Shown here one piece after another: positions 4,595-22,346 of a stretch of 30,917 nucleotides of DNA. Below the pieces are notes generated by a model, which was not told where the DNA came from, searched no databases, and saw nothing but the letters and a program-made list of their open reading frames with translations. The DNA comes from an uncultured archaeon (GTDB taxonomy: Archaea; Asgardarchaeota; Thorarchaeia; Thorarchaeales; CAZPUN01), in assembly GCA_964589775.1 (NCBI GenBank), contig CAZPUN010000001.1:1-30917 (forward strand), in the 5' to 3' direction. The first letter of the stretch is position 1; every line of letters begins with the position of its first letter. A program made the position numbers and the translations under genes.

Positions 4595-7500
4595 TTGCTG
4601 TCCTCCCTTGACCATGGATATTTTAATAAGTCTCTATTGTAAAAGGCACGCTCTCCCACGAATCCAACCGCAAGAATTATACCAACCATTAAGAAAGATA
4701 TAAAGTCGCCATTTACCGTAATTAATGACTGGGCGGTATTGGACCCACGGACATAAAGTGTATAAGTTTCCTGGACTCCACTAACATATTCGTTTCCGGA
4801 AACCTGTACCAGAATATTATATTCACCGATCTCTTCAGGAATCCACACAAATGTGTATCCATGCATTCCAAAAATTAATCCCTTATTTACAAGTACAGTT
4901 TGTCCTCCACGCATTACCTTTATTGTGACATTGAATACACCATCCACATATCGCTCATTATACAAAAGATGAATCGTAATATTGGTTTCTATACCGACTA
5001 GAATAGCATCTTCTGGCAATTTTACTTCAAGTTCGGGAGAGATCACCGAATATATTTGTGTTCTAAAGGCAGAAGCAAATATCTCAGAATTTCCAGAATA
5101 TTCAAGAATAATTGTATAGTTGCCCCAGCTTGTGATCTCCACATTTAAGATTAGAATTCCGGAGAAATCAGTTGTGGCATTTATCTGGCTATATATTTGT
5201 GAGTTTCTATAAATTAGAACATTTACGTCTGCATTACTAATTGTTGAATTATCTTCACGGTATAGATGATATGTCAATGCAAGATTTTGTCCTTGTGTGG
5301 AGTTTAGAATGGTTTTGCCAGTCCAGTATGAACGATACAATACCAAAATCTCGCTGCTATTATCGATGGCAGGATAGAAGGTACTTCCATCATAGCGGAC
5401 AACCAATTGGTATCGACCGGCAAGAGATGCAAACCAAGTAATGTTAAGGCCGCCTGCAGGTACGGATAGAATCGTAATTGTGGAAAACGCACTGCCATAT
5501 ATTTCTCGTCCTTTAGGATTGTATAACGAGAGAGCAATTGTGAAATCGTTCAATGTACGATTAAGATCATCGTGAAGGAATAAGAATACCGTACAATAAT
5601 CTAATACTTTAATATGCACAAGATTTAGGCGTACATGCACATGGGATAACACTGTCAAATTCAAAGATACATATACTCCACGGATTTTTACAGCACCGGA
5701 ATAATTTAGAGTAAGCACATAATTTCCAACTTCAGTTATTGGAAGCAATATGTATGCTTTACCAAAGTCATCAGTCTGAACTTCGGAATCCACAGAAATA
5801 TTTCCCACTAACCGATAAGTTATGGTCGCATTAGAAATCGGGTTATTATAGTCGTCTACAAGCGTAATTGGAATTGTAGTATTCTCAAGATAAATTGTAG
5901 AATTGACTCCAATGTTTAGATATGCTGAGGAATATACTATGATTGAGAAATTGAGTGAAGACTCTAAATAATGTGTTGTGCCGGGAAATTCTACAGATAC
6001 ACTGTAATTTCCAGAATGCTCAAAAAGGATATATAGTTCTTTATAGCTGCCATTTGAAATTGCAGTTGATATTGACATAATCTGAGTATCATTTAATACC
6101 ATTGAAAACTTGATCATGAATCCTTCTAGTGATGCCCCATTTGTATCTTCCAATCGAATCAATATTGAAACATTATCACCAGCATAAATTTGGTTCTCGG
6201 GCAATTGGACTGAAATATGAGTGCCAAGAACTGCATCAATGCTTTTGTTTTCACTTGTCGGAAGATATAGCAGGTATCCATAGAATCTAATTGAAACCAG
6301 ATATGTCTCTAATTCTGTCAGATTCACTGCTTTAGAAAATGTACCATCAGTTGAAGTTATCATAGTCCATTGGAATATTTTCGTATTATGTTCGTCAAAG
6401 ATTCTTCCCGAAAGCAATAGACCCCCGAGACCATTTCCTGCAGCATCTCGAGCAATCCCTGAAATTAGGAATGTCTCATTTACTGGAACGCGTTCCGGAA
6501 TGTTTAAAGTTATGAATACGCACGAATACACATCAAATGCAAATTCAGACTGGTTTGCATCCCAATAATCTCCCGAATATACTTTTAATTTTACAATATA
6601 TTTTCCGACTGACTGCGGAATAAATGAGAATAGCACGCCCGTTGTATTAGTAGTGAATTTAGACCATGATGTCCAAACGGATCCATATATCTCATTTCCG
6701 GCAGGATCGTATATTCCAATGTATGCAGAAATACTATCAAGCGACTGATTTAGTGCATCATAGAGGAAAACGGTGAAATTGACAGAGTCCAGCAGTAAAG
6801 GCACAGAATCCTGTAGCTTAAGGTCCCATGCAGTTTTCGTCTTCACAACAACGTCTTGAATTGCATCTTCGCCTATGTAAAATTGCCCTGGAGTTATGTA
6901 TGCTCGAACTTTCAACAAGCCAATCATTGTAGGTGTGAAATATATTGCAACGGTTCCATTTACGTATGTGATGTTTGTTTTGTGTTGCAGCGGTAGATAC
7001 GCAGGAGAGAGCAAATCAAAGCTAATGTTTACTCCGGTAATTGTATTTCCATTTTCATCTTTTAGTACACCTTGTATGTAAATATCATTTGTCAAGTACA
7101 CGGGTGAATCCAAAGTTATTGATATAATTGCCTTAATATCCGCCTCTAAATTAACTACGGTCTCAGTAGAAGCATATAGGATTGACCCATTATACATAGC
7201 ATGTATTTCGTAAATTCCTTTCTCATTAAACGTGTATAGAAATGTATCATTTGATGGTAGTATCAGTGAGTAAATCTTTGAATTATTACGATATATCTCT
7301 ACGGTGATGTTTGCATAAATTAATGTTCCATTCGAGTTATCAATCAACACCACCCGGATTTCCTGCAAATGCCCGACTAGAACTGGAGTCGAAAAATGAA
7401 CTTCAATATGGGCATCTCCTTTTACTGCAACTGTCATAAGCGAGGTCGTACTGGAGAAATACTTCTTTCCGGCATAATATAGCTCGACCGTATATAGATC

Positions 7501-10500
7501 TACATATGAAGGTTTCCAACTAAATGAGGTAACCTGCTCCGTAATATAAGTACTTTGAAATACGATAGCCCCTGTAGAATTTAGTATTTTCACCACAACA
7601 TATTCACCAATTAGGGCACCAGTAGTTTCGTTTTCCAAGGTAAATTTAACGATCAGTGTACTACCAAAAGACAGTTCGCTTACTGGATCTATTATTGTTA
7701 TTTGCACAATCTGAGTTATGTCTATTGTATCAATCAACTGGTTGTGTATCGTAAATCTATCATCTAAGGTTATGTTAAGGGTGTATGTTGCAGCGTAATT
7801 AACTCTAATATTAATCAACACAACTCCTGAAGCATTTGTAATACCAAATCCAGATACAATGTATCCGCTATGTTTGAGTGAGACAAGAATATGTCCCAAA
7901 TTGATTGGACCAGATGTTCCTCTTACAGTAGCGTTTATTGTGAATTGATGTCCTGCTGTCAAACTACCAAGAATTTCGTATGAAATTGACACTGATTCGA
8001 AAACGTCTAATTTTCCAAGATATTCTGAAGGAGCATAAGTACTATTTCCTGCATAAGAAATTCGAATCGTATATGCACCACGGTTTTCAGGCATCCATGA
8101 GAACTGTACAACGCCCTCAGAACTGTTTGCGAAAGTTACATGAATAACAGTATCGTTTAAAAGAACTTCAAATTTAATTCTACAGTTATTCAAAGACATA
8201 TTTCCAGCATCATAGATTCTCACGGAGAGTGATAGATTATTTCCTAGCACAAGTGTCTCATTATAATACGCTGCCAAGAAGGTCTGATGGCGAATATAGA
8301 CGAGCCGTGAAGAATTACTGGAATAGTGATATAAATCACCAGTATATGAGACATTTATCTGATAATCGCCAATGTTAGATGGGATCCAAGACAGCGATGC
8401 ATAATTTGTGCTATTTAAGTATAGAGTTTGAAATATTATTTGCGTGCCGTTAGAGTCGAAGATTCTTAAACTAATTGCCTGACCCGATAATGTACTAACA
8501 TCGGTTCCTGTAGCATGTACAAGAATTAACAGCTCAACGTTTGGATAACTAATATCTAAGGAGATTATATCAAGCTTGACATCACTAATCGTTCTAACAT
8601 TCGTGCTATTGTGCGATGAATATAATGTATGGTCTGAGGATCCAGAATATTCAACCGATATTTGAACATCAGTCGCTATGTCTAAATTCCAAATTAAAAT
8701 TGCAAATCCGCTTGCATTCGTTATTCGGAAGTATGTATGATAAGTAGTACCATAAGAAAGTGTAATTTTCAGAGATGCGTTAGCAATACCTGCATTGAAT
8801 TCATCATATAAATGAAAGAGGGTTGTAACATTCTCACCTGCGGATACTGAACCATCAGTTTGAATAGACACATAGCTCAGTTTGTATATTATAGACGTGG
8901 AAGAATTGCTACAACCAAGAACATGACCATTCCCGGCATATTCAAGTATGATCTCAAATTCGCCTGTGCAGTTTGGAGTCCATGTAAAGTTCGCCCAGCC
9001 ATTATTAGTCAATTTAGTATTCGTAAAGATGATTGTAGAACCACTTTTTACAGTCAGTGTGACATTATCATTATCTATTGCAGTACCATTTTCGTATGTC
9101 AGATAACCAGATATGTTCAATGGTTCGTTCACATGCCCAGTTGCATTTACGCTATTACTTAATTCTGTCAGAATAGGTTCAAAAATCGAAATATCAGAAT
9201 TATAGATATAATCCGTACAATCTTGATGCGAAATTGTCAGTTCAAACGTATAGTTACCAACCGATAAATCAAAATTGACCGAGAACTCAAATGGACTATT
9301 CACATGATAATATGTTCGCATGGTGTAATATGTTGAATTATACACTGCAATTTTTACTGTGGTATCATTAATAGGAGCTCCAGTAGTGAGATTAAACTCA
9401 ACATGACCTGTTATTGGATAGTCGTGAGGATATTCGTCAGAATCAAGAGAAACAACACCATCGATAGCTCCAGAAACATAAATATCATGAGTCACAGCAG
9501 CAGGAGTTTGAGAGCCATTAGACCATGCTTTAATCTTAATCATATTATCGCCCAGTGCAGATGAATTTGAAGGAATAGAAATTGTTATGGTACCATTTGG
9601 AGCAAAATCCGTTATTGTTCTATTTCCAAACGAATCAATTTGTAATGTGACTATTGATGGGACGGAATCACCAGAGATCGAATACATATCCAAGTCTAGG
9701 GAAATACTGCTTCCGAGCGATGTTGTACTAGGACCACTAACTGAAAGCCCAAACGCCATTGGCTGCTGCTTTGTGAACCAATCATTAAGGCGAGTATGCA
9801 GACGATAAATCATTTCAGTATATTGTGGAGTAAGTGTATTATTTTGATAATATAATCCACGATTATTGGTCTGAGACTCTATTAATGTTCTAACTATAGT
9901 GAAATTGACGTAATCGCTTAGAATAATGAATCCAGCATCTTGGAGCAAGCCTAGAGTCTCCACTGCATAATATGTCGAGCCAAGATCACTCCAATTAACC
10001 TTTGAAAGCACATAATTACGAATAGTATCCGCAAGTGTTTTGTTTAATAAATTTAGGTCACGATAAGCGAGAGTGCCAAAGTATGTCGGAGCTAGTTCGA
10101 ACATAGAATACGGATAGGTAAATTCCGTATCAAATTTAGCAGCATTAAAATTATTGAGCAAATAAGCTTCTAGCAATTGCCTATTTGCTATTTCATTTAA
10201 TTTACCCATGCTCCAGAGCAGGTCTGTAGCTGCCACAGTATATTGGAATCCGGTTATACTGCCAGTATCTCGGGATTGTCGAAATGCCCCTGCATTTTCT
10301 CCGTCCAAAATTTGCATGGATGTAATGGTTTCTACAAACTGATCTTGTTCAGCCTCAGACATGACTTTTTGGAATCCACCATATGCAATCACTGAATGTA
10401 CAGCAAACCATTCGACCCATATAGAGTCGAGGTCCAGATTTGTACTATAATATTCAATTGGATTTGGCAAGTAAGAATCAGGAACATGAACCACAAAGTA

Positions 10501-12390
10501 ATTACTATCACAAACAGATTCAATAAATGAACCCAAATTGGAAGATAGAATATTTCTATCATAATATTCCAGAATAGTATTAGCAAATGCTGAGGTCCAG
10601 AAGAGTGTATCAAGAGTGTTCGAAAACTTGTCGAATCCGACATTTTCTAAATATGTGCTCATTCCAAAATCGACTAAAGCATCATAATCAATTGTGGTGA
10701 TATTCGCTTGAAGACTAGGACGAATCAGATCCGCAAAGATTTTCGATGTCCCAATTTTGCTATACGCAATGCCTGGAATATTAAAACCGCCAGAAGATAA
10801 TTGCTGTTGTGATAGCCATGCAGATGAATTGCCATGTATTTCGGAAGGAACCCCACCGGTCAGTGCAAGAGCTCCTAACGCTGCTACAGTTCCTTTCACA
10901 AAACTTGGCGATTCAGTGATCGTTATTGGGCCAATTTGGTATGGGGGTACTGAATAGAAAGACCCATCGTTTACTGATGCATTGTTTAATATCCAGTTTC
11001 GTAATAACTGTATATCTAGTACATCTTTGCTATTTAGAATATCAAGTGAGTAAACGCATTCATAAGAGCTTACCGTAGATGATTCATCACTACCATAATA
11101 TGGTGCAATTCCACCTATCATTTCGGAAATACCATTTTCATCAGCAGTATGTTGCTGCCCTTTGAGAAATTCAATTGCTGCTGTAGTATTGATTAAATCA
11201 AGCTTGTTTGAAAGTTCAAGAGCACGCAAGGCAAGATAGGTTTCATGTACTCTATCAAGGGTTGAGCCGGGTCTTGCAACAAACCCGCCTCTATCCGTTT
11301 GCGAACTTGCGATTGTATGGGCAATAGATGTGACATTAAACTCAGAAATACCTAGTTCGCTAATTAGTATAAGTGCCATTGAGGTTGAGGTATAATCTGG
11401 CTCTTTAGTTTGGTCCGGTCTAAATAGCGTCTCAGAGTCGTTTTCATACATCCATGAGTCCAATAACTTTTTGACTGTATTGTTAATCTGGGATAATAGG
11501 TCAGACTTGTTTAGTGCATAAAGGCCATCGACGATCTCATAAGCGGCAAGTAATGTAGGTATGTGATTCCAACTCCAGCCACCAGTGTCATTTCCCTCGT
11601 GTTGTAATTGATAAATATACTCCAATTTATCTTGCTTATCAGATATTAAATACGCAATTTCATCAAACAAGGATTCCATTCCGATTTGAGACACCTTGGA
11701 GGGATTTTCAATTGCAGACCATATTGCCTCAATACCTTCTCGCTGAATATAAACCGCACCGGTATAATTCTCAGAGTTAAGTAGGGGTACTCCAAGCCGC
11801 AATGATTCATTATATTTAATCAAGGGAACTGGCACAGTATTTTGCAAGTTCACTTGTGAAAACGAATATGGAACACTAAAAACCTTTTCAGCAGCCTCAG
11901 TAACATTTAGAACAACATTTGTAAATTCGCCGAAATCATCTGAGGAGAAATGAACAAGATCATCTAAGAGAAGAAATGCATGTCCAGTCATTAAAAATGG
12001 AACTCGAGCATCTCTGAGTTCTCTCCACACAACTTTCGAATCTTCTGAGCCAGTGCTACCTGAAACAGATGCATCAATTATTATTAAATCATATTGAGAT
12101 AAATTCAAATCCAAGGAAGATACAGAAACACTACTGGTATGAAAACCAAAATCATTGCAGGCACTAAGCCAGTTATCAACTGCAGGCAATATATTTGTAG
12201 AGTTAGAAAACACAATTAGAATGTCAGGAATATCCTCTGATTCGCCTGTAAATTGCATTACTTTTTCAGTTGATATAGTGTTTATTTTTATTTGCCCATC
12301 GTTTTCAATAGGATAAGTTGCAGGTGTTCCGCCTATAGTTGATATGAACATGATCGCGAAAAGAAATAACAATACGAATTGCTTTCTCAT
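4591..12390 (-). CDS. Giant (2599 aa) membrane-anchored surface protein: signal peptide, prenyltransferase/squalene-oxidase-like alpha/alpha repeats, ~17 Ig-like repeats, C-terminal TM
   Basis: Signal peptide MRKQFVLLFLFAIMFISTIGG; QW-like repeats (QLQHEGNDTGGW, SSQTDRGGF, QQQLSSGGF, SMQILDGENAGAF) at about 11630-9780; beta-rich ~95-100 aa repeats ending Y-x-G...Y..S at about 9750-4750; TM FISFLMVGIILAVGFVG; many N-x-S/T sequons. Confidence 0.85.
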   Translation of the reverse strand: MRKQFVLLFLFAIMFISTIGGTPATYPIENDGQIKINTISTEKVMQFTGESEDIPDILIVFSNSTNILPAVDNWLSACNDFGFHTSSVSVSSLDLNLSQYDLIIIDASVSGSTGSEDSKVVWRELRDARVPFLMTGHAFLLLDDLVHFSSDDFGEFTNVVLNVTEAAEKVFSVPYSFSQVNLQNTVPVPLIKYNESLRLGVPLLNSENYTGAVYIQREGIEAIWSAIENPSKVSQIGMESLFDEIAYLISDKQDKLEYIYQLQHEGNDTGGWSWNHIPTLLAAYEIVDGLYALNKSDLLSQINNTVKKLLDSWMYENDSETLFRPDQTKEPDYTSTSMALILISELGISEFNVTSIAHTIASSQTDRGGFVARPGSTLDRVHETYLALRALELSNKLDLINTTAAIEFLKGQQHTADENGISEMIGGIAPYYGSDESSTVSSYECVYSLDILNSKDVLDIQLLRNWILNNASVNDGSFYSVPPYQIGPITITESPSFVKGTVAALGALALTGGVPSEIHGNSSAWLSQQQLSSGGFNIPGIAYSKIGTSKIFADLIRPSLQANITTIDYDALVDFGMSTYLENVGFDKFSNTLDTLFWTSAFANTILEYYDRNILSSNLGSFIESVCDSNYFVVHVPDSYLPNPIEYYSTNLDLDSIWVEWFAVHSVIAYGGFQKVMSEAEQDQFVETITSMQILDGENAGAFRQSRDTGSITGFQYTVAATDLLWSMGKLNEIANRQLLEAYLLNNFNAAKFDTEFTYPYSMFELAPTYFGTLAYRDLNLLNKTLADTIRNYVLSKVNWSDLGSTYYAVETLGLLQDAGFIILSDYVNFTIVRTLIESQTNNRGLYYQNNTLTPQYTEMIYRLHTRLNDWFTKQQPMAFGLSVSGPSTTSLGSSISLDLDMYSISGDSVPSIVTLQIDSFGNRTITDFAPNGTITISIPSNSSALGDNMIKIKAWSNGSQTPAAVTHDIYVSGAIDGVVSLDSDEYPHDYPITGHVEFNLTTGAPINDTTVKIAVYNSTYYTMRTYYHVNSPFEFSVNFDLSVGNYTFELTISHQDCTDYIYNSDISIFEPILTELSNSVNATGHVNEPLNISGYLTYENGTAIDNDNVTLTVKSGSTIIFTNTKLTNNGWANFTWTPNCTGEFEIILEYAGNGHVLGCSNSSTSIIYKLSYVSIQTDGSVSAGENVTTLFHLYDEFNAGIANASLKITLSYGTTYHTYFRITNASGFAILIWNLDIATDVQISVEYSGSSDHTLYSSHNSTNVRTISDVKLDIISLDISYPNVELLILVHATGTDVSTLSGQAISLRIFDSNGTQIIFQTLYLNSTNYASLSWIPSNIGDYQINVSYTGDLYHYSSNSSRLVYIRHQTFLAAYYNETLVLGNNLSLSVRIYDAGNMSLNNCRIKFEVLLNDTVIHVTFANSSEGVVQFSWMPENRGAYTIRISYAGNSTYAPSEYLGKLDVFESVSISYEILGSLTAGHQFTINATVRGTSGPINLGHILVSLKHSGYIVSGFGITNASGVVLINIRVNYAATYTLNITLDDRFTIHNQLIDTIDITQIVQITIIDPVSELSFGSTLIVKFTLENETTGALIGEYVVVKILNSTGAIVFQSTYITEQVTSFSWKPSYVDLYTVELYYAGKKYFSSTTSLMTVAVKGDAHIEVHFSTPVLVGHLQEIRVVLIDNSNGTLIYANITVEIYRNNSKIYSLILPSNDTFLYTFNEKGIYEIHAMYNGSILYASTETVVNLEADIKAIISITLDSPVYLTNDIYIQGVLKDENGNTITGVNISFDLLSPAYLPLQHKTNITYVNGTVAIYFTPTMIGLLKVRAYITPGQFYIGEDAIQDVVVKTKTAWDLKLQDSVPLLLDSVNFTVFLYDALNQSLDSISAYIGIYDPAGNEIYGSVWTSWSKFTTNTTGVLFSFIPQSVGKYIVKLKVYSGDYWDANQSEFAFDVYSCVFITLNIPERVPVNETFLISGIARDAAGNGLGGLLLSGRIFDEHNTKIFQWTMITSTDGTFSKAVNLTELETYLVSIRFYGYLLYLPTSENKSIDAVLGTHISVQLPENQIYAGDNVSILIRLEDTNGASLEGFMIKFSMVLNDTQIMSISTAISNGSYKELYILFEHSGNYSVSVEFPGTTHYLESSLNFSIIVYSSAYLNIGVNSTIYLENTTIPITLVDDYNNPISNATITYRLVGNISVDSEVQTDDFGKAYILLPITEVGNYVLTLNYSGAVKIRGVYVSLNLTVLSHVHVRLNLVHIKVLDYCTVFLFLHDDLNRTLNDFTIALSLYNPKGREIYGSAFSTITILSVPAGGLNITWFASLAGRYQLVVRYDGSTFYPAIDNSSEILVLYRSYWTGKTILNSTQGQNLALTYHLYREDNSTISNADVNVLIYRNSQIYSQINATTDFSGILILNVEITSWGNYTIILEYSGNSEIFASAFRTQIYSVISPELEVKLPEDAILVGIETNITIHLLYNERYVDGVFNVTIKVMRGGQTVLVNKGLIFGMHGYTFVWIPEEIGEYNILVQVSGNEYVSGVQETYTLYVRGSNTAQSLITVNGDFISFLMVGIILAVGFVGERAFYNRDLLKYPWSREDSK

Positions 12391-12977
12391 GCTAACATCC
12401 CTCCAAGATACATAATGGATAATGAAATCACGGCAACAAGAACAATAAATTCTACAATTGCCGTTCGGGGGTAGTTTTTCAAAATCTCAGTGAAAATCAA
12501 TACATCTCCACTAGTAATTGATAAATTAAACCAAATTGAAAAGGCCAGATAGACCAGTACAATCTTTAATGGAAATGATAGTATTAGACCAAAATTAAAG
12601 AATTCCAACATTATAATTGTTCCGAAATAGAAGACGGAAAATAGAACTAGAAATGCCTGAATTACACTACGAGGCGTTTCAACTTCAAACGTAGGAGTTG
12701 GTTCACCATATGTGAAGACCCAATGTGATTTTACAACTTTGACTCGAAATAGAGCCAGAAAGATTCTCCTGAATATAAATATCAAAACTAAGCCAGGAAG
12801 CGTCAAATATAGAAGGGCAACATATAATTTATTTCTAACCCAGCCGGTAAATACTCTACGCTTTCCAGACAGTATTAGAATTCCGCGTATGAGCGATGCG
12901 ATAAGAACTGCAACTGGCATGAAAAACAATGATGCCAATAACACATCCAATATTACAGGATCAAGTAAAATATCCAT
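12387..12977 (-). CDS. Polytopic membrane protein resembling small M50-like metalloproteases but lacking HExxH
   Basis: About five hydrophobic segments. LTLPGLVLIFIFRRIFLALFRVKV aligns by eye to the PGxxxHExxH...GxKV pattern, and SITSGD to the PSxxD third-ligand motif. Confidence 0.6.
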   Translation of the reverse strand: MDILLDPVILDVLLASLFFMPVAVLIASLIRGILILSGKRRVFTGWVRNKLYVALLYLTLPGLVLIFIFRRIFLALFRVKVVKSHWVFTYGEPTPTFEVETPRSVIQAFLVLFSVFYFGTIIMLEFFNFGLILSFPLKIVLVYLAFSIWFNLSITSGDVLIFTEILKNYPRTAIVEFIVLVAVISLSIMYLGGMLA

Positions 12978-14489
12978 TTAGTGCCCACCCTCCTTTACAG
13001 TGGTCTCTTCATCCTTTCCAATAATTTCTTCAATTACTGAATCTATGTCGGTAATGGGAAGGTCTGTATCGCTTTCAAAGTCATCAATAGAATCCGTTAT
13101 GGGCATTTCAACCTCCTTGACTGGCTTCGATATGGGCTCCGATGGTTCTTCAGATGGTGCGTCCTCTTTTTCCACAGCTTCCGGGAGTTCCAACTCGGCT
13201 ACTTTAAGTTCGCCAGTTTCCTCTTTTGCAAGTGGTGAATCATCTTCTTCCTCGGATTTTATCTTTCGAGTCAAGTCTTCTACTAAGGATTCTAGAGCCG
13301 GTTTATTTACAACGTCAAAAATCTTATTTTTCATGGTCTCATCAATCAGTCCGAGCCACATCAACATTCGAGCAATTATGACATATGGAGAAATGACTTC
13401 GAATGGGAATAGTTTGGATATTTCTGCCTGTCTGAGTGTATTTACTGCACGTATAAACTCAGTTTCATAAGATTCATCAAGTCCCATGCCAGCAGAGGTG
13501 AAAATGTTCAGAATACCATCGATAATTGGATCTTCATCACCTTTTATTTCAGGGTTCAATTCTCTTGCAATGGTTTCGAGAACTTCGAGAATTATTAATG
13601 CACTGGGATTATACTTTTTCTTATCAAATAGCTCTATGGCTTCATTTACCTTATCTGAGACATATTTCGTGAGTTTTTCATATTTTATATCGATTTCAGT
13701 GCGTTCCGTTTCTGATGGGGGAGTTACAACCTTGTGTATTACCGCGGGAACATATTGAATTTGCTCATACAATTCGTTCTGAAAGATAGAGAATAGACGT
13801 ACAGATTCCACCAGCATAAGCATGGAAGCGATGATTCCAGCCATGCCGATCATTATTCCAGAACTTAAACTCGGTATGATCGTACTAAGCATAGTCATTA
13901 TACCGAAGCCGGGCAGTGTGAACATAGAGTAATGACCTAATTTTCGCGATTTTCGCCATACAGCCCATTTTTTCTTAAAATTAAGCGATTTTGTATCAAT
14001 ACTAGAATCTCTTCGTATAAACTCGTCCAGATTTGTATGCAGCACGCTAATTTCCTTGATCTCATCAGGAATATCTACGACAATTCGTTCGTCCATTATA
14101 ACGATCAATGGCGTTACAGTCCACGCCAATTCACTAGTACCATAGAGCGATAATTGAGTCGATATCCAGAAATGATTCATTCGTACATGTGAGACTCCGT
14201 CAACTAACGCAGCTCGTTCCTGAGGAGGTATCGACTTGAACTCATTGATTTGTTGTAGAACTTCACTATAAACTTCCATCAATTCCGTCTTCGAAGACAC
14301 AATACCGATAATGATTACTTTAGCAATAAATCCGGAACTGTCCCTTGTGGGTGATATTCGCCATAGATAATAGCAATTCTCTTTTTCAGTCTCATGAACA
14401 TTAAATCCATCTCTAATTAGCCCCTCAAATAGAGACATATAGTCTATTGTTCCGATTTCCGGAACCCTTTCAATTTCTACACTATGCAT
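12978..14489 (-). CDS. Hypothetical two-TM protein with a HEPN-like helical domain and acidic disordered tail
   Basis: 503 aa, central pair of hydrophobic helices, EAIELFDKKKYNPSALIILEVLE helix, E/D/P-rich C-terminal ~90 aa; SD GGAGGTGA. Confidence 0.65.
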   Translation of the reverse strand: MHSVEIERVPEIGTIDYMSLFEGLIRDGFNVHETEKENCYYLWRISPTRDSSGFIAKVIIIGIVSSKTELMEVYSEVLQQINEFKSIPPQERAALVDGVSHVRMNHFWISTQLSLYGTSELAWTVTPLIVIMDERIVVDIPDEIKEISVLHTNLDEFIRRDSSIDTKSLNFKKKWAVWRKSRKLGHYSMFTLPGFGIMTMLSTIIPSLSSGIMIGMAGIIASMLMLVESVRLFSIFQNELYEQIQYVPAVIHKVVTPPSETERTEIDIKYEKLTKYVSDKVNEAIELFDKKKYNPSALIILEVLETIARELNPEIKGDEDPIIDGILNIFTSAGMGLDESYETEFIRAVNTLRQAEISKLFPFEVISPYVIIARMLMWLGLIDETMKNKIFDVVNKPALESLVEDLTRKIKSEEEDDSPLAKEETGELKVAELELPEAVEKEDAPSEEPSEPISKPVKEVEMPITDSIDDFESDTDLPITDIDSVIEEIIGKDEETTVKEGGH

Positions 14490-16677
14490 CTTTCTTCACC
14501 TCCTCAGTGATAGAAAATTCAGCTGCATCATGGAATGGAGCCAAAATGGTTTCAATTTCTGTTGCAGCTCTACCAATATCGACATAACCTTCAGAAGATG
14601 CTATTTGCGAAATGCAATGAATTAACCATCTCGCCGTGGAGAATAGCGTCATGAAATCGCCGGTGTAATTCTCAAATCTTTCAGAAATATCCCAGAACGA
14701 CTTACGTTCGATTACGATTTGGTTCAAGGCTGAGGAAAATTCTTCGGGTAACTCTCTCAGTGATTCTGTAGAAATCGCCATTTCAAGAACATGTAATATA
14801 TCTGCTATATTTTCAATGCTAAACAAAGACGCACGAATATTCTGAGCTGTTTCTATCTTCAAATACAACTGTACGATGCGCCGCCCAATTTCTGTTGGCA
14901 TATAGCGATTCTCTTTTTGAACAATAAGTTTGCTTCGAATTAATGTATCGATCACACTAAACTTTCCAAGTGCAAGAGGAATAATCCCATTACCATGTCC
15001 GGGAGAATCTGCCATAATTTTAAGACCAAGCGCTATTAGATGGACGCATAGTTTCTTACGACCACTTCTAAAAGCACTGCACGAGCATTTTGGACCTGAA
15101 ATATCTGAATAACTACAGGTGTACGTAGAACCCGCATAATCAATCAAGCCATCTATTGTTCTATCAGTTACCCGTCTTAATTGGACATAGGAAATTAGTT
15201 CTTCGGCTTCGGAAATATCGTCAGGTGCAGCAATCATTTCAATTGCCGTAATAGCATCAATATGCCCAAGACGAATAGATTTAATTCCAAGTTCGCTGCT
15301 ATGCTGATAGCTCCAGAAACTTGAATTTATGAACTCTTCAATCTGTTCTAGAGTAGGGTCATTTAGTTCGTAAATTGTAACAAGTGTTTGTTCCAAGAGG
15401 CTCGAGTAATTTCCAAAGGCGGATATAATTGGTTCATATTTCGGTACAAGTTCAGATCCTGACGGTATGAAATAGCGTTGCAAAACTTCATTTTGCTCAT
15501 CGGGATTTCCAGCAAGTATGATACCATAGCCAATATCATCGAATCCGGGTCGCCCGGCACGACCGAGAATCTGATGTACAGTATTAGCGTCCATATAATT
15601 TGTTTCTACTTCATTACTTTCATCTGTAGAGAACATTTTAACGTCTCTCAAAATCACAGTGCGAGCTGGCGTGTTAATACCTGCACTTAACGATGTTGTA
15701 CAGCATATAACAAATATCAAACCATCTCTGAATAGATCTTCCACAATCTTTCGCGAAGACCACGATAATCCTGCATGATGAATACCGACACCATTAATGA
15801 GCAAATTCTCTAATTTTGCAGATATCCGAATACCTTGTGCGCGTATTTGTGTCAGGCGTTGGCGAATAGCTTCCTTTTCCTTTCGTGATAGATGTTTGCC
15901 AACGTATTCAGCAAGTTCGGTACCTTCACTTTCAACACTTCTACGAGTGCTTGTAAAAACCATCACTTGACCGCCACTATGAATTGTGCTCATAGTGATT
16001 TTCAGAACTGCTTCACGCTTATTCTCAACAAGAGATACAAACGGCTTTAATGGGACAGGCCGTTCTGTAGATTCTACAAGATTACAACCTAACCAATCCG
16101 CAAGTTCAACCGGGTTTGCTATTGTAGCTGTAAGTCCAACTATTTGAGCGTCCGGAATAATCCTCTTGAATCGCATGATGGCTCCTTCAATTCGAGGCCC
16201 ACGAATGGGGTCACCCATCATCTGAATTTCATCAATTACGACCGTTTGAATATCCAAAATCCAACTTACTTTTGAGCGTAATATCGAATCGAATTTTTCG
16301 TAGGTTGTTACAATTATATCGGCTGCAGCAAGCATACCGGGATCATGGTCAAAATCTCCACTGGAGACTGCTACAGTATAACCTAATGCCTTGAACTTTT
16401 CTGATAATGCATGAAACTTCTCAGCTGCAAGTGCCCTTAGTGGAACGAGATACAAGGCTTTCTTGCCCAAGCGTGCAGAAGATAGCAGGGCCAATTCGCC
16501 AATCAATGTTTTTCCAGACCCGCTGGGGCTCGATACAAGTATGCTTTCGCCATCTAATAGACCTTTTAAAATTGCTTCCTGCTGTATTTTCCTTAGACGG
16601 ATTCCCCACTGCTCTAATAGGTCATTCACCCAATCTGGGAGTGGTACTTCTGGTTCTTTTGCTGCTTGAACGCTCAT
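14482..16677 (-). CDS. Ski2/Hel308-like SF2 helicase with internal SWIM zinc finger
   Basis: Q motif LRKIQ, SPSGSGKT, LVPLRALAAEK, TTYEKFD, DEIQ, LTAT, HHAGL, TTSLSAGINTPA, QILGRAGRPGFD; winged-helix PTEIGR; CSC-x10-CVH SWIM signature. Confidence 0.9.
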   Translation of the reverse strand: MSVQAAKEPEVPLPDWVNDLLEQWGIRLRKIQQEAILKGLLDGESILVSSPSGSGKTLIGELALLSSARLGKKALYLVPLRALAAEKFHALSEKFKALGYTVAVSSGDFDHDPGMLAAADIIVTTYEKFDSILRSKVSWILDIQTVVIDEIQMMGDPIRGPRIEGAIMRFKRIIPDAQIVGLTATIANPVELADWLGCNLVESTERPVPLKPFVSLVENKREAVLKITMSTIHSGGQVMVFTSTRRSVESEGTELAEYVGKHLSRKEKEAIRQRLTQIRAQGIRISAKLENLLINGVGIHHAGLSWSSRKIVEDLFRDGLIFVICCTTSLSAGINTPARTVILRDVKMFSTDESNEVETNYMDANTVHQILGRAGRPGFDDIGYGIILAGNPDEQNEVLQRYFIPSGSELVPKYEPIISAFGNYSSLLEQTLVTIYELNDPTLEQIEEFINSSFWSYQHSSELGIKSIRLGHIDAITAIEMIAAPDDISEAEELISYVQLRRVTDRTIDGLIDYAGSTYTCSYSDISGPKCSCSAFRSGRKKLCVHLIALGLKIMADSPGHGNGIIPLALGKFSVIDTLIRSKLIVQKENRYMPTEIGRRIVQLYLKIETAQNIRASLFSIENIADILHVLEMAISTESLRELPEEFSSALNQIVIERKSFWDISERFENYTGDFMTLFSTARWLIHCISQIASSEGYVDIGRAATEIETILAPFHDAAEFSITEEVKKDA

Positions 16678-19010
16678 TTTAGTTCCACCTCACCATGCCC
16701 ATCTTCAAACATTTCAAGATTCATTCGACCACGCTCAGTGATTGTATAAGACGCTACTTTGAATCCACCATAGCCTTCGCTAACTTGGGTTAGATATCCA
16801 TGTTCTGCAAGCCCTTTTACAATACGAACTATTTCATCGCGTTCGGCTTTCTTTGATAATGCACTAACAATCCCTTCCTGACTCAAGACTTCATAATTCG
16901 TCAGTAGCTTCAAGATCATTGCAGCCAGTAATGCTTTACCACCAAAGTCCTTCTCGAGGGTTGTAGAGGCAGGTCTAAAGATTCGCATACTTAATTCGGG
17001 ACGCAAATCGCCCAATCGTGCTTTTATTTCAGACTCTGAGACATCTTCGAGTTTGCTTTCAAACTTGTAATTAATTTTGATAGGAAATCCAGTGGAAACT
17101 CCCTCTACAATATATAGAGCCTCGCCATAATCTAATGTACGCAAGTAGGTTGTTTCGCGACTACCATATCGATTCTTGCTATATAGTCCATGAGATAGGG
17201 CAGAAAGACCCATGCGATCTGCAACTGTAGAAACATCTGAGCTCGACGTCACTCTATGCGAGATTGAAATTGCCAAATTGTTATACATAGAATATGGCAG
17301 GTCAGTGGGAGAGTCCGTCGAAAGTAATATGCCAATTTTTTTCTTTGACAATCCTTTTTGGAGCCCTTTCCAGATATTATCCTCATATTCTGAAATGAGC
17401 CCGCGTGCAGGCATACTAAACATTAGTGCAGCAGATGAGAAACCCAGAGCGGATATATCGCCGTTATATGCCAAAAGCTTGGTTGCGATTAGAGAACTTG
17501 CCATGAAACGTAGCGTAGGAGATTGTAGATTATATTCAATTATTACAGGACCATGGGAGATCAAATCAGATATGGAACAATTTTGCACACCGTAGAAAGA
17601 TTCTGCGCCCTCACCTATTTTCAAAGACATAACGAACCTGTATAATTCCTCTGAAGCACGGTCCATTCCAGTCGAAACAGATTCATATTTATCGAGAAGA
17701 TCTTCAATCGTTGAACTTCCATCCGAAAGAACATCCATTAAAGCCATATCAAATTCGGGAGTGGGAACTCCAGCTTTATACGCTGCAGTTGTTAGAATAC
17801 TTCGCAAAAGGCTCCCATAGAGATTAGAGGGCAATCCTTCCGGGTCTACAGGATTTAATATGAAATCTCTGCCCAATCTCAAAATAACTAAATTATCAAT
17901 TAAACGGAGCAATTTTCTATAATTCGAGTCTCCAGTTATGAATATGAAATTAATACCTCGCTCAGAAAGACCCTTAAGCACTCTAAAAGTTGTTTTCATT
18001 CGCTCATCATGAATTCCACCTACGATTGCTATGCCCTTTGGCACCATATCTCTTTTGAATCCTGCATCCTCAACTTCATTTTGGGTTTCCGTATCGATTA
18101 TACGACCAATCTTAATATCGTACTGTAATCCTGTGGGAAGAATAAATTCACCCGGGACTCGAAATTGTACCTTGCCGAGTAATACCGGCTTAATATCGAA
18201 AATAGCCCGGGTGATCTCGGCTCCAGTAGCGACAAAAGTAGGGGGTTGCGAGAGGAGGGAGGAAGAATATAGGTTCTGGAGGTTCATCTCACGTAATTTT
18301 GCACCCGGGATGCTGGCCCGTACAGAATTTCGAATTACGTGCAATGAGGCCTCCAATTTGATTTCGTCTGGAGCCGAGATGATCATCGTAATTGAGACAT
18401 TCCAGAATCCGGCCATTTTACCAATTGTTGCCTGCTGCAATCCAGAACTCATTTCAGACCAATTTTCAGATACAAACTCAGTTAGATTTGAGGATTTTAG
18501 CACATCATCAAAATCTACCGGACACAATGAGAGCGAATATTGGAAATTGATATCAGAATTTACAAGTGACTCTAACAGAGTTTCCATTCGGCCAAATAGG
18601 CTCAAAGGCACTTCTTTTATTATTAGCCCTGCAACAAATTCATCTCCAATTTTCGCAAAATTTTCTGTTCGACTAAATGAATTGGAAATTGGTGCATAAT
18701 CTGAATTACTTATCTGATACGAATGAATAAAGTAGCTAGCAGCCTCCATACTTGTAGTTAATACAATACCAAGTAAGAAAGCACCTAGCAGCTCTAATGA
18801 CATGTTTATTCCGATTATTACACCAAAGCTCCACATTATACTCATCATTCCTAACTTTTTAACGTACGTGCCTCCGATTGGACTACGTCGCTCCCATATT
18901 GTGATGTACGCGGTGTCCGACTCTTGTTCTATTTTAGGACGCTTGGACATTCGTTCAATAGGATCAACTTCGGGACGTGGTCCAAAGTACGTTCTCGCCT
19001 TTTTTGCCAT
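16674..19010 (-). CDS. Membrane-anchored HerA/VirB4/CedB-like FtsK-HerA superfamily protein with degenerate ATPase motifs and C-terminal winged helix
   Basis: Two N-terminal TMs; IKIGRII...KGIAIVGGIHDERMKT at the Walker A position; FIFITGDSNY, LNPVDP, KKKIGILLSTDSPTDLP, NNLAISISHRV parallel HerA/VirB4 motifs; LAEHGYL...YTITERG wHTH. Start moved to ATG 19010 (MAKKAR), after a GGAGGAG SD. Confidence 0.65.
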   Translation of the reverse strand: MAKKARTYFGPRPEVDPIERMSKRPKIEQESDTAYITIWERRSPIGGTYVKKLGMMSIMWSFGVIIGINMSLELLGAFLLGIVLTTSMEAASYFIHSYQISNSDYAPISNSFSRTENFAKIGDEFVAGLIIKEVPLSLFGRMETLLESLVNSDINFQYSLSLCPVDFDDVLKSSNLTEFVSENWSEMSSGLQQATIGKMAGFWNVSITMIISAPDEIKLEASLHVIRNSVRASIPGAKLREMNLQNLYSSSLLSQPPTFVATGAEITRAIFDIKPVLLGKVQFRVPGEFILPTGLQYDIKIGRIIDTETQNEVEDAGFKRDMVPKGIAIVGGIHDERMKTTFRVLKGLSERGINFIFITGDSNYRKLLRLIDNLVILRLGRDFILNPVDPEGLPSNLYGSLLRSILTTAAYKAGVPTPEFDMALMDVLSDGSSTIEDLLDKYESVSTGMDRASEELYRFVMSLKIGEGAESFYGVQNCSISDLISHGPVIIEYNLQSPTLRFMASSLIATKLLAYNGDISALGFSSAALMFSMPARGLISEYEDNIWKGLQKGLSKKKIGILLSTDSPTDLPYSMYNNLAISISHRVTSSSDVSTVADRMGLSALSHGLYSKNRYGSRETTYLRTLDYGEALYIVEGVSTGFPIKINYKFESKLEDVSESEIKARLGDLRPELSMRIFRPASTTLEKDFGGKALLAAMILKLLTNYEVLSQEGIVSALSKKAERDEIVRIVKGLAEHGYLTQVSEGYGGFKVASYTITERGRMNLEMFEDGHGEVELK

Positions 19011-19011
19011 A

Positions 19012-19368
19012 TCATCTCCTCCCCAGACGTATCGCTTCAGCATCATCTCTTAATGATTTATACACATCTTCAATCATGTTTGGCTCAAGAGAAGTTGCGA
19101 TGGTATCTGGGGAAATCCTAATTATTGAACCATCTTCTGAACTCAGTACAAGCTTAAACTCATGAAGCATATCGGGACGCTCCAGACCATAACTGGATAG
19201 AGTATGCATGATCTCTTCGTCACGCAATATTGCAGGGATTTTTATCAGGTGAACACGCACCTTAGGTCTTATAGGCGTCTGTTCCGTATGTTCTCTCTCA
19301 CCCCATAGGAATAGACTTAGTGTGAATATCCCAATTAATAATATACTACCTATTACAACCCAATTCAT
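19012..19368 (-). CDS. Small single-pass membrane protein
   Basis: N-terminal TM MNWVVIGSILLIGIFTLSLFLWG; ATGA overlap with the upstream gene, 1-nt gap to the downstream gene. Confidence 0.7.
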   Translation of the reverse strand: MNWVVIGSILLIGIFTLSLFLWGEREHTEQTPIRPKVRVHLIKIPAILRDEEIMHTLSSYGLERPDMLHEFKLVLSSEDGSIIRISPDTIATSLEPNMIEDVYKSLRDDAEAIRLGRR

Positions 19369-19790
19369 TCAGATTCCCCCGTTACTCTCGCAACTAATTT
19401 TTTCAGATCCTCAGAAGTCAGATCTACAAGTTTCACATGATGAAGTACTGATTTTAATACGCTACCGGCTATCGCCTTGAATTCGACTACCTTTTGAAGT
19501 ACCTGTTCTTCATTTCTTTTGAAAAACACTCCTTGTTTTTGCTGTGCTTCTACTAAAAAGTAAATGGCGATGGAATTCCTTGTCTGTCCAGGCTCCTTTG
19601 CATCCTTTAACAGAATATGAAATCTAATTTTATAGGAATACAATACTGAAAGTGCTCTAGCAAGTGAAACTTCAATACCAACTGGAATTAAACCGATACG
19701 AAAGCCTGTTATCGCTTTAAACATGCCGTCTTTTATCAGAATCAGCACACCGTCTTCATGAACCTTGTAATAGATTTGACTTGCTAACAC
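19365..19790 (-). CDS. Hypothetical protein (141 aa)
   Basis: GTG start overlaps the helicase TAG stop; its own stop overlaps the next ATG. Confidence 0.7.
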   Translation of the reverse strand: MLASQIYYKVHEDGVLILIKDGMFKAITGFRIGLIPVGIEVSLARALSVLYSYKIRFHILLKDAKEPGQTRNSIAIYFLVEAQQKQGVFFKRNEEQVLQKVVEFKAIAGSVLKSVLHHVKLVDLTSEDLKKLVARVTGESE

Positions 19791-21724
19791 TATGGTCTCC
19801 TCCTGAAAAAGTATTTCAACGCATCAACGAGCTCTTGAGCACTTTCGTAAGCCCAAATTTCTTGTTTCCAAGTCTTTGGCAGAAATTCACGATAGGTCTT
19901 TAATCGCTTATCGAGTACTATAACAACACCTCGATCTTTTTCAGAGCGAATGAGACGCCCGCTAACTTGGAACAACTTCTTAAGGGCTGGCACAAATATT
20001 GCATATGCAAACCCATTATGGAATCGAGCATCATAGAATTCTTTCAACTTCTCATTTATTTCATCAAGAAGTGGAAATGGAATACCAGCAATGATAATTG
20101 AACTAATAGCACTTTCACCATTTATTCTGAATTCAACACCTTCGGTCCATTTTCCACCCGCAACTGCAGACACAATTACAGGCTTACCACGAGCAAGTTC
20201 CGCCTTCAAGTCTTCTAACTTTGCACCCCGCTTCTCACTTAATATTCTACGATGGACCTTCTTAACCAAATATCGCTCGATATTATCTTTGATTTTGTAA
20301 CTCGGATATGACACAAGGACAGACTTGTTTCTCGGTAAATTTCGAACTATTAATGCGATGCGTTCGGCATAAGACTCCCATAGAGATTCAGTTCGCATGT
20401 TATAATTCATAGACAATTCAGGATCTACAAGCAACAGCCGATTTCGTGAAGAATATGGACTTGGAAAACTCATCTTAACTGCCATCGGAACGCCAAGAAC
20501 GTCTGAATAGTAGTTCAAGGGATCAAAGGTTCCAGACATTAACAAAGCGGAATCTACCGAGGTTAATAATGGTGAGATATACTCAGCGGAATCAAGACCC
20601 ATTAATGTAAGCTTAGGAATTCGTTCTCGTTTACGATACCACTGAACAACAATTATGTGTGATGAATCAACGTGTGAGAGTACACTCAGATAAAATTGGC
20701 TGACTTCAACAAGCTTACTAACAACAAAAGAACCTTCCTCAAACTTCTTGCGCTCGAATGAGCTTCCAGATTCTATTAGTTTCCGTAAACTCTCCTCCTT
20801 TATGAACCGAGGTATGATTTCCCACAATTCAACTTGGACTTTATCGTCTTCGGTTTTGCCACGAAGCTTGCGTTCGCCAGTCTCTTGTAGAAATTGATAT
20901 AGGGCCACTAAATCTGTCATATCAATACCAAGGCTCTTGCCTTCTTCAATTGCCTGTTCAATATCTTTAAGTGTAATAGAAGTTGAATTCAAATTCCGTA
21001 CAACTTCGGGAAGATTGTGAGCCTCATCAATTATAAGAGAAATGTTTCCAATATCAATGTCTAGTCCTTTTATGAAATAATTTTGAATCTTGTGATCCAA
21101 TAAATAGTTATAGGAGGCGATAATTACTCTCGCACCCTTTGCCATAAATTGGGTGATATCATAAGGACACAATCTCTGTTCTACAGAACGTGCATAAACC
21201 TCAGAAGGCGAAAATTCTTGATCGTTTAGCATAATTTCAATTACATCTTTGGCTACTTGTGACGGTTCGCCATTTTTAACAGACGTATTATGGTACGGAC
21301 AATGTCCACTTGAGGAAATTAGCAAACACTTTTTCAGAAACTCGGCATAACTAATTTTTTCTTTCTTAGGTTCGAGTAGAGGGCACATCTCTTGCTTGGA
21401 CAATAAAATAGCAACTGGAATATTAACTCCCGAAGACCGCATAATCGCTTTTATTTCCTTCTCAAATATCAGTGCCTGAGATTTTGTACGTGTTAACACG
21501 ACAAGTACATTATCTCGACCATGTAATCCCTTTGCAAGAAAATATCCAACAAGCGCACTAATAGTCTTACCCGTACCACATGGAGCATTTAAAAATCCAA
21601 TCCGCTTAGATTCGAAGATCTTCTGAACATATTCAATAATTTCCTTTTGATATGCTCTCGGACGATACTCATGCGGAAAGACTGAATCAAATGATACAGA
21701 AGGCAATACTGCAGTATCTGACAA
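19790..21724 (-). CDS. XPD/Rad3/DinG-family Fe-S cluster 5'-3' DNA helicase
   Basis: PRAYQ, APCGTGKT, four Fe-S-position Cys (MCP, KKC, HCPY, LCPY), IIDEAHNL, MSGT, GKWTEGVEF, GIPFP, QVSGRLIRSEKDRG. Confidence 0.9.
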   Translation of the reverse strand: MSDTAVLPSVSFDSVFPHEYRPRAYQKEIIEYVQKIFESKRIGFLNAPCGTGKTISALVGYFLAKGLHGRDNVLVVLTRTKSQALIFEKEIKAIMRSSGVNIPVAILLSKQEMCPLLEPKKEKISYAEFLKKCLLISSSGHCPYHNTSVKNGEPSQVAKDVIEIMLNDQEFSPSEVYARSVEQRLCPYDITQFMAKGARVIIASYNYLLDHKIQNYFIKGLDIDIGNISLIIDEAHNLPEVVRNLNSTSITLKDIEQAIEEGKSLGIDMTDLVALYQFLQETGERKLRGKTEDDKVQVELWEIIPRFIKEESLRKLIESGSSFERKKFEEGSFVVSKLVEVSQFYLSVLSHVDSSHIIVVQWYRKRERIPKLTLMGLDSAEYISPLLTSVDSALLMSGTFDPLNYYSDVLGVPMAVKMSFPSPYSSRNRLLLVDPELSMNYNMRTESLWESYAERIALIVRNLPRNKSVLVSYPSYKIKDNIERYLVKKVHRRILSEKRGAKLEDLKAELARGKPVIVSAVAGGKWTEGVEFRINGESAISSIIIAGIPFPLLDEINEKLKEFYDARFHNGFAYAIFVPALKKLFQVSGRLIRSEKDRGVVIVLDKRLKTYREFLPKTWKQEIWAYESAQELVDALKYFFRRRP

Positions 21725-21725
21725 T

Positions 21726-22346
21726 CTACTTCCTCCTCTTTATATCTTCAAATAATTTGAGATGCTTCCAGTTGTCTCGAGAAATCAATGGGCCATCATC
21801 TGTCAATTGCTCAATTTTGACTGTAAAGTAACTATCAACCATATCGAGAAACTGACGAACCACCATTCCGGCACGAATCGAATTCTGATTCATTTCATAC
21901 ACAGAACGGTCTACTAATTCCGGAGAATAACAAAATCGACGAGCATAATTCCAAAAGCCGGTCTCAATTGCTGCTGCACGTTTATAATAAGTCTTAGCCA
22001 TTTCATGCGCAAGATCAATCAATTCCTTCGCAACGAAATTTTCAGGCTTTTTTGCCTTGAAATGCATATAAAATGCGGCTCCGCTCCATGATTCCTTGGG
22101 AGTCACTGTTCCTTTTAATTCACGAGTGGCTTGAATCTTTGCAAGGAGTTCCGGAAGCTTAGCATGTGGCGTATGTTCTCCTGGGTTCCATTCTACCACA
22201 ATTACAACTCTTAAAACATCATCGTCAAGAGTCAGAAAGTATGGAATTGCATTTCGTTCGAAATATCCATTAGCCATTGATACTGCAGTTTCGGGATTTA
22301 TTGCTTGAACTTTCTCCGGTGCCCTGAATAGGGATAGTATGGTCAT
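21726..22346 (-). CDS. Hypothetical protein (206 aa)
   Basis: Coupled ORF (ATGA overlap, GGAGG SD); no recognisable motif. Confidence 0.7.
   Translation of the reverse strand: MTILSLFRAPEKVQAINPETAVSMANGYFERNAIPYFLTLDDDVLRVVIVVEWNPGEHTPHAKLPELLAKIQATRELKGTVTPKESWSGAAFYMHFKAKKPENFVAKELIDLAHEMAKTYYKRAAAIETGFWNYARRFCYSPELVDRSVYEMNQNSIRAGMVVRQFLDMVDSYFTVKIEQLTDDGPLISRDNWKHLKLFEDIKRRK

Follow-up and report, generated by a model that had tools for sequence, protein, structure and literature searches.

Domain layout of the helicase

The window analysed here is a stretch of 30,917 nucleotides from an uncultured Asgard archaeon of the order Thorarchaeales (assembly GCA_964589775.1, contig CAZPUN010000001.1, positions 1 to 30,917). 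At positions 14482-16677 of its minus strand there is an open reading frame (ORF) for a protein of 731 amino acids (aa; P0001), in which a SWIM zinc-finger module is inserted into the winged helix of a Hel308-like helicase and which is called SWIM-Hel308 below. Pfam recognised strong DEAD and Helicase_C domains in this protein and registered SWIM and Helicase_dom4_arc at sub-threshold level, while the opposite strand of 14482-15300 contained no ORF of 80 aa or longer. An AlphaFold2 model built on 33 relatives (predicted local distance difference test score, pLDDT, 87.8; predicted TM-score, pTM, 0.84) was closest to Sso Hel308 (2va8, Z 37.0, 565 residues aligned), Hjm (2zj2, Z 36.7) and Afu Hel308 (2p6r). 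Altogether, the archaeal Hel308/Hjm structures matched the model with Z of 32-37 over 554-585 residues at 30-32% identity.

Pfam, alignment and the model place the RecA1 domain at approximately aa 10-205 (16063-16650, minus strand, as for all other domains), with Walker A GSGKT at aa 53-57 (16507-16521) and motif II DEIQ at aa 149-152 (16233-16222). The RecA2 domain follows at approximately aa 206-415 (15433-16062) and includes a beta-hairpin of aa 347-361 and motif VI, QxxGRAGR. The N-terminal part of the winged helix, assigned by secondary structure of the model and by alignment with canonical Hel308, which extends to aa 459, occupies aa 420-459 (15301-15420) with helices at 424-438, 443-450 and 454-458. 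It is separated from the C-terminal part (aa 575-607, 14857-14955; helix 3 and the wing hairpin in the model and the canonical alignment) by the inserted module of aa 460-574 (14956-15300). A shortened ratchet domain 4 at aa 608-715 (14533-14856), recognised by alignment, structure and a weak Pfam match and conserving G673, D674 and W684, is followed only by a short tail of low confidence (14485-14532), and domain 5, a helix-hairpin-helix (HhH) domain, is absent according to the model, Pfam and structural alignment.

An earlier note on this DNA, made from its letters without database searches, had described a Hel308-like helicase with DEIQ as Walker B, an insertion of roughly 110 aa between FINSSFWSYQ and VIDTLIRSKLI, a CSC-x10-CVH motif at 15087-15040 and an end ahead of the GIGRxRAR HhH domain. 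This description proved to be right: the family assignment agrees with the best folds and with the helicase matches of Pfam and NCBIfam, the motif coordinates are exact, DEIQ is where it was read, the two flanking segments lie at aa 449-458 and 575-585 with approximately 115 aa between them, and the early end of the protein was confirmed by Pfam, by structural alignment and by BLASTP comparison with a canonical homologue.

That homologue is the canonical Hel308 of the same genome, a protein of 732 aa encoded on a separate contig, with Helicase_dom4_arc at 524-647, HHH_5 at 655-706 and the tail GIGRARAR. BLASTP aligned aa 7-459 of the window protein with its residues 2-457 and aa 560-630 with residues 454-526; therefore approximately 100-115 aa are extra in the window protein, and they are placed between helices 2 and 3 of the winged helix. 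In the window genome SWIM-Hel308 is thus a second, specialised Hel308.

The SWIM insert

The putative zinc ligands of the insert, C531, C533, C544 and H546, belong to the segment CSCSAFRSGRKKLCVH (aa 531-546, window positions 15087-15040) and are invariant in the 33 aligned relatives (29-85% identity). The pattern CxC-x(9-19)-CxH was found in 39/39 sequences of the SWIM clade, the spacer being 10 residues in the window protein, 9-14 in the clade and 19 in the Loki type, and the usual SWIM spacing CxC-xn-CxH has n = 6-16 (PMC5727457). In the model the insert, which is missing from canonical Hel308, begins with two helices, continues with four strands and ends with helices. Folded alone (pLDDT 86), it gave two helices, then a sheet of four strands with CxC at its end, and then a helix with CxH at its start.

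Comparison of this fold with 48,161 chains by a structure search other than Foldseek yielded a sole outstanding match, residues 114-214 of ZSWIM8 (PDB 9rwz), with Z 8.1 and, for the second chain of the same entry, Z 8.4 (root-mean-square deviation, rmsd, 2.9-3.0 over 85 aa, 16% identity), the next matches having Z of 3.1-4.2. Foldseek also put ZSWIM8 at rank 1 with probability 0.94, but this match was not significant (E 0.13). Judged by its motif and its predicted fold, though not by its Pfam score, the insert is a real SWIM domain. The earlier note had placed a SWIM zinc finger inside the winged helix, and both parts of this claim held, the finger itself owing to the invariant CxC/CxH residues and the SWIM-like fold of the insert, and its location owing to the position between helices 2 and 3.

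Motor parts and the missing domain 5

In the alignment of 33 relatives residues Q32, P51, G55, K56 and D149 of RecA1 are invariant, and E150 and S183-A184-T185 are nearly so (at least 90%). In motif VI A374, G375 and R376 are invariant, with Q369, G372 and R373 nearly invariant; the hairpin of RecA2 is conserved and the ratchet tryptophan W684 is nearly invariant. The winged helix (domain 3) and the ratchet domain 4, which in Hel308 close a ring, were aligned with 2va8, 2zj2 and 2p6r through model residue 715. Helicase_dom4_arc matched the window protein weakly (E 0.0055); it matched 24/33 relatives with the best E of 1.7e-07. Thus, all parts of a working 3'-to-5' DNA motor of helicase superfamily 2 (SF2) are present, namely two RecA domains with motifs Q, I, II, III, V and VI, the RecA2 hairpin, the winged helix and a ratchet domain with its tryptophan. 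Since the ATPase motifs, the hairpin and the ratchet tryptophan are conserved, SWIM-Hel308 is probably an active motor.

The structural alignment pairs model residues 8-715 with residues -1 to 644 of Sso Hel308 and with residues 8 to 626 of Afu Hel308, that is, only to the end of domain 4; therefore domain 5 of both enzymes has no counterpart in the model. The window protein stops 16-19 residues past the last domain-4 helix of the model, and no Pfam HHH domain was matched anywhere in its 731 aa. The NCBIfam equivalogs of Hel308 scored well under their cut-offs (NF040935, 328.6 against 1200 bits; NF002654, 398.6 against 887 bits) and matched only the region from aa 10 to approximately 460-490. 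Domain 5 and the equivalog score are therefore the two features by which the window protein departs from canonical Hel308. Domain 5 of Hel308 serves as a brake and as an annealing element (PMC13623763), and a helicase devoid of it should lack both the brake and the annealing activity of the canonical enzyme. By analogy with published truncations of Hel308 domain 5 (PMC13623763) such a protein may be regarded as de-repressed.

Distribution and history of the family

The C-terminal half of the protein found 28 representatives among 1.84 billion proteins in an exhaustive search, and a word-based search for homologues gave 3. One relative carried no annotation beyond 'DEAD/DEAH box helicase [Ca. 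Hermodarchaeia]', and the Atlas cluster of the window protein was composed mostly of Thorarchaeota. The proteins obtained in one contig scan for relatives were all bacterial (Sumerlaeota) SF2 helicases, similar in the RecA core. With a profile of the C-terminal half the family was detected in 100/400 Asgard genomes, 59/86 genomes of the sister family in the Thor order among them, so that the taxonomic survey suggested in the earlier note showed that the SWIM-Hel308 clade spans the Asgard archaea. Both the insert and its motif are kept in all 20 distant members from other Asgard families, seven of which (L057, L060-L065) also keep the HhH domain 5 with a GVGRVRAR-type motif. In the Loki-type family f22 a long form of approximately 845 aa combining SWIM and HhH was present in 93/135 genomes, and the six near-complete genomes of this family that were checked (G187, G189, G201, G210, G225, G247) contained no canonical Hel308, the SWIM form being their only Hel308-like gene.

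The tree was built from canonical Asgard Hel308 and 39 SWIM-bearing sequences and was rooted on ASH-Ski2. Canonical Asgard Hel308 (support 100) was separated from 38 SWIM sequences (support 96), and L057 was unresolved at the base. A tree constraining all 39 SWIM sequences together was even slightly better than the free one (p-AU 0.535, approximately unbiased test), and a single origin of all of them is thus not rejected. Domain 5, missing outside L057, L060-L065 and the Loki-type genomes, changed its state on the tree at least two times. SWIM-Hel308 is, therefore, an Asgard-wide branch of the Hel308/Hjm family, in which the SWIM insertion came first and, most simply, once, and domain 5 was lost later and more than one time (at least twice). 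This order of events follows from the presence of SWIM together with domain 5 in Loki-type and some other members, and the same coexistence made us reject the idea that SWIM replaced domain 5. An association of the DEIQ variant of motif II with the SWIM insert was also considered and rejected: DEIQ or DEVQ is a trait of the Thor type (18/19), while most other members of the clade have DEIH.

Hel308/HELQ is held to be a five-domain helicase from archaea to humans, and a large Asgard branch breaks this plan by the SWIM insert and by repeated loss of domain 5. A literature search revealed no paper linking Hel308 with SWIM, or SWIM with Asgard helicases. The survey of archaeal Ski2-like helicases published in 2024 distinguished three groups, none with SWIM, and reported Hel308 as missing in 13/15 Lokiarchaeota (PMC10946056). 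The Loki-type form with SWIM and HhH, as apparently the only Hel308 of its genomes, may explain this "missing" Hel308. We have not seen described before the Asgard-wide SWIM-Hel308 clade, the Loki-type combination of SWIM with domain 5 as the sole Hel308 and the repeated loss of domain 5, and the same is true for the fold match with ZSWIM8 and for the adjacency of the helicase to the unk503 family considered below.

As a separate observation, the canonical Hel308 of genome G135 was found in an open frame of 1284 aa (G135:C22:56315-60043) with its match split into 2-346 and 340-723, which suggests an intein-like insert.

Gene cluster around the helicase

All neighbours of SWIM-Hel308 considered here are encoded, like the helicase itself, on the minus strand. 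The cluster is headed by a full-length RadA paralogue of 352 aa (22745-23803) with two small partners, unk133 (22343-22744) and unk206 (21726-22346), and continues with an XPD/Rad3-family helicase of 644 aa (19790-21724) and unk790 (16674-19046), which has a HerA/VirB4/CedB-like fold and a degenerate Walker A. On the other side of SWIM-Hel308 there are unk503, assigned to no known family (12978-14489), unk196 with five predicted transmembrane segments (12387-12977), a giant surface protein of 2599 aa with immunoglobulin (Ig) repeats (4591-12390), the RadB-like RecA-core protein RadB_b of 226 aa (3935-4615), the membrane protein unk404 with three N-terminal transmembrane segments (2716-3930), a second RadB-like RecA-core protein, RadB_a, of 223 aa (2042-2713) and a FEN1/XPG-family nuclease of 305 aa (1134-2051). 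Membrane segments are thus predicted in several proteins of the cluster.

The gene order was the same in 18/18 loci of the Thor order: RadA paralogue, unk133, unk206, XPD, two small proteins, unk790 and SWIM-Hel308, and then a member of the unk503 family (approximately 550 aa), RadB_b, a protein of approximately 320 aa, RadB_a, FEN, unk196 and the giant surface protein. The window deviates from this order by a local rearrangement: unk196 and the giant protein, placed after FEN in the 18 related loci, stand between unk503 and RadB_b. A 2025 paper on two clades of Asgard RadA makes no mention of the helicase or of the cluster (PMC12722695).

The helicase is tightly packed between its two neighbours. 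Its start overlaps the stop of unk790 (ATGA, 16674-16677), unk503 starts 8 nt before the stop of the helicase (14482-14489), and GGTGA-like ribosome-binding sites precede both overlapping starts. In unk790 the position of Walker A is occupied by GGxxxxR, the lysine being missing in 26/26 aligned orthologues, and by sequence the protein looks like a conserved pseudo-ATPase. The unk503 family (503 aa in the window, approximately 490-670 aa in relatives), for which neither a meaningful Pfam match nor a match in the PDB was obtained, adjoins the helicase downstream in the Thor order and upstream in family f16 (L048:9060-10916, L051:12141-14144, L055:12031-13929).

Joint presence was estimated over 87 genomes of the order. 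The helicase and unk790 were both present in 54 genomes and both absent from 26, and the helicase and RadB_b were both present in 52 and both absent from 26, with nine mismatches; most mismatches in co-distribution were located at contig ends. In 24 high-quality genomes of the order the helicase was found in 21, unk790 in 20 and RadB_b in 22. SWIM-Hel308 is thus co-inherited with the cluster in the Thor order. In other Asgard families the order of genes is reshuffled and XPD is mostly absent, but the helicase still stays near RadB_b, unk133, FEN, unk790 or the RadA paralogue, and a RadB-like gene was near it in 9/15 non-Thor loci with enough flank. The co-occurrence with RadB-like proteins anticipated in the earlier note is thereby borne out both within the order and in these loci. 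Loki-type genomes have a single RadB-like gene, which usually does not share a contig with the helicase or else lies at a distance of 13-27 kb from it; unk790-like genes occur near the Loki-type helicase as well.

Some particular loci deserve mention. In the single-contig genome G380 the open frame of SWIM-Hel308 amounts to 985 aa (G380:C1:1493519-1494385) and unk790 was not found there; this frame may represent a fusion or a rearrangement. Three orthologues of RadB_b (G020:C15:25639-26208, G391:C7:31547-32119 and G360:C45:87580-88251) contain one in-frame TAA each. A protein of 650 aa beside a Loki-type SWIM-Hel308 (L061:6247-8199) shares with RadA only its N-terminal HhH part (aa 12-85).

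Possible role of the SWIM insert

Proceeding from these data one can assume that the SWIM module provides a protein-docking or organising surface, as it does in ZSWIM8 and Shu2. The SWIM of ZSWIM8, at residues 172-208, is a 'central organizer' of a protein superdomain (PMC13083262), and that of Shu2 touches the RecA-core paralogue Shu1 (PMC5727457). By homology with Hel308, SWIM-Hel308 would be a brake-less 3'-to-5' motor, which the SWIM module would fix to one protein of the cluster, with a RadB-like paralogue, the adjacent protein of the unk503 family and the HerA-like unk790 as candidate partners. Single-stranded DNA, made as the helicase unwinds and the FEN-like nuclease removes a strand, would then pass to the RadA of the cluster and to the paralogues acting as its mediators. 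The inserts of Thor type are near neutral or slightly acidic (net charge from -1 to -3, isoelectric point, pI, approximately 6), and a contact with protein therefore fits them better than a contact with DNA. We give the docking of the insert to some protein of the cluster about an even chance. In the Thor type and in several other lineages a private set of recombination genes has SWIM-Hel308 as its helicase, and this set offers a testable system for coupling of a motor to RadA paralogues.

Several observations weigh against this assumption. The earlier note had proposed to look for SWIM with Pfam, and the outcome was mixed: the domain (PF04434) was matched at the right place, aa 519-550, but its score (15.9 bits, E 0.0097) is under the gathering cut-off of 19.6 bits. 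The same model matched just 4/33 relatives at E of 0.05 or lower, the best E being 0.0015, and an insert profile compared with PDB sequences retrieved no SWIM chain, only chance matches (E of 0.57 or higher). The net charge of the insert varies among lineages from -3 to +11, so that the DNA-binding signal is inconsistent. Zinc binding, ATPase activity and polarity of the helicase are predicted by homology. Finally, no tight linkage to RadB-like genes exists in Loki-type genomes, whose sole Hel308 is the SWIM form, and this raises the possibility that the insert fulfils a general task of Hel308, for instance substrate recognition, rather than docking to the cluster.

A more specific version of docking was put forward in the earlier note, according to which SWIM binds the RadB-like paralogues of the operon and thus forms a Shu-like mediator module (SWIM plus Rad51 paralogue) built into the helicase, echoing the pair of HELQ and BCDX2. 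In all of the Thor order the helicase has a co-distributed gene of RadB_b type 1.5-2.3 kb downstream, and the two stay close in families f5, f14, f16 and f19 in spite of shuffled gene order. The precedents are the contact of Shu2 SWIM with Shu1 (PMC5727457) and the binding of BCDX2 by HELQ, which works with these RAD51 paralogues (PMC13623763), and the window protein itself fits, with CVHLIA, the extended motif of Shu2/SWS1, CXC..Xn..CXHXXA with invariant alanine (PMC6316741). But alanine at the third position after histidine is kept in only 12/39 members of the clade, and the fold match with Shu2 is weak (6dex_B, Z 3.7, rmsd 3.6 over 82 aligned residues, rank 11) in comparison with that of ZSWIM8. 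Moreover, the SWIM insert predates the loss of domain 5, Loki-type genomes keep SWIM and HhH with the RadB-like gene usually unlinked, and the unk503 family and unk790 are linked to the helicase as tightly as RadB-like genes or tighter. We regard the binding of RadB-like paralogues as less likely than not, other partners from the cluster fitting just as well. A broader statement, that the partnerships of a SWIM finger and of a Hel308-type helicase with Rad51 paralogues were already fused in archaeal relatives of eukaryotes, with SWIM binding the RadA paralogues of the cluster, looks rather improbable at present. With the gene set itself one could examine whether SWIM-paralogue partnerships are older than eukaryotes.

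The main rival to docking assumes that the insert is an element of nucleic-acid recognition, which alters the choice of DNA structures (forks, flaps, D-loops) by the winged helix. Its position agrees with this, as the winged helix is termed the substrate-recognition domain in a review of Hel308 (PMC13623763), and both DNA- and protein-binding roles were predicted for SWIM (PMC5727457). Retention of the insert in Loki-type genomes, where no other Hel308 accompanies it, and its basic character in several lineages (pI 8.3-10) point in the same direction. But the Thor-type inserts are slightly acidic, the matched SWIM domains of solved structure (ZSWIM8, Shu2) work via protein contacts, and no basic residue is conserved clade-wide beyond the motif region. 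Recognition of DNA by the insert therefore appears unlikely to us.

The helicase might also be the motor of a membrane machine for DNA import or exchange, tethered by SWIM to the ATP-dead HerA/VirB4-like protein and pulling DNA in like ComFA, a helicase with this function in bacterial transformation. The fold of unk790 and its translational coupling to the helicase, the membrane proteins and the giant surface protein of the cluster and the unk790-like genes near the Loki-type helicase are in line with this idea. But the Walker A lysine is missing in all aligned orthologues of unk790, and scans with Pfam, NCBIfam and PADLOC detected no homologue of a channel, pilus or relaxase, which makes such a machine quite improbable.

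An anti-virus helicase-nuclease defence of Hachiman-like or DinG-like type, with SWIM-Hel308 as its sensor or effector, is hardly credible: PADLOC HamB models do match the RecA core (E 2e-38), the type IV DinG model matches the XPD gene over its full length (E 1.7e-90) and a few near-complete genomes of the order are without the cluster, but these matches are limited to helicase cores of generic type, neither HamA nor another defence partner was registered (0 PADLOC families for eight neighbours), the cluster is present in 20-22/24 high-quality genomes of the order, helicase clades follow lineage, and RadA, the RadB-like proteins and FEN make up a recombination set. A known defence system was rejected on the generic nature of the PADLOC matches; near the XPD gene no further component of CRISPR or defence was seen, so that the type IV DinG model probably recognises XPD proteins in general.

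Comparison with known systems

The window protein shares with archaeal Hel308/Hjm (2va8, 2p6r, 2zj2) the four-domain core of RecA1, RecA2 with its hairpin, winged helix and ratchet. It differs from them by the SWIM insert of 115 aa in the winged helix, the absence of the HhH domain 5, a shortened and divergent domain 4, the DEIQ of Thor-type motif II and its place in a clade separate from canonical Asgard Hel308. HELQ and the helicase domain of POLQ also have the fold of the Hel308 family (POLQ, Z approximately 30-31.6), but HELQ, as described in a review (PMC13623763), comprises five Hel308 domains including domain 5, with no SWIM or zinc insert named.

Shu2/SWS1 (6dex; PMC5727457) resembles the insert in having a CxC..CxH zinc module (CxHxxA in the window protein) in a recombination context, beside paralogues of Rad51/RadA reduced to the RecA core. 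These proteins are, however, small and stand-alone, and as SWIM-Hel308 is not, its alanine is not conserved and its fold match is weak, it is not a member of the Shu2/SWS1 family. ZSWIM8 (9rwz; PMC13083262), whose 85 aligned residues within 114-214 include the SWIM of 172-208 that organises a protein-protein assembly, is nevertheless a receptor of a cullin-RING ligase that lacks a helicase and is unconnected with recombination.

A parallel in design is the arch/KOW module of Mtr4, FRH and Ski2, Ski2-like helicases in which an accessory docking or regulatory module projects from the winged helix (PMC5931499); their module is, however, a helical arm with a KOW barrel rather than SWIM, these enzymes are RNA helicases, and the parallel is drawn at the level of the domain. 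A SWIM joined to an SF2 motor also occurs in bacterial SNF2-associated proteins (Pfam SNF2_assoc and SWIM), and a structure search of the Atlas brought up SNF2-associated SWIM clusters at weak TM-scores of 0.39-0.40 over query residues 472-724 and 474-681. In these bacterial proteins, in contrast to SWIM-Hel308, the SWIM is terminal and the motor is of Snf2 rather than of Ski2/Hel308 type.

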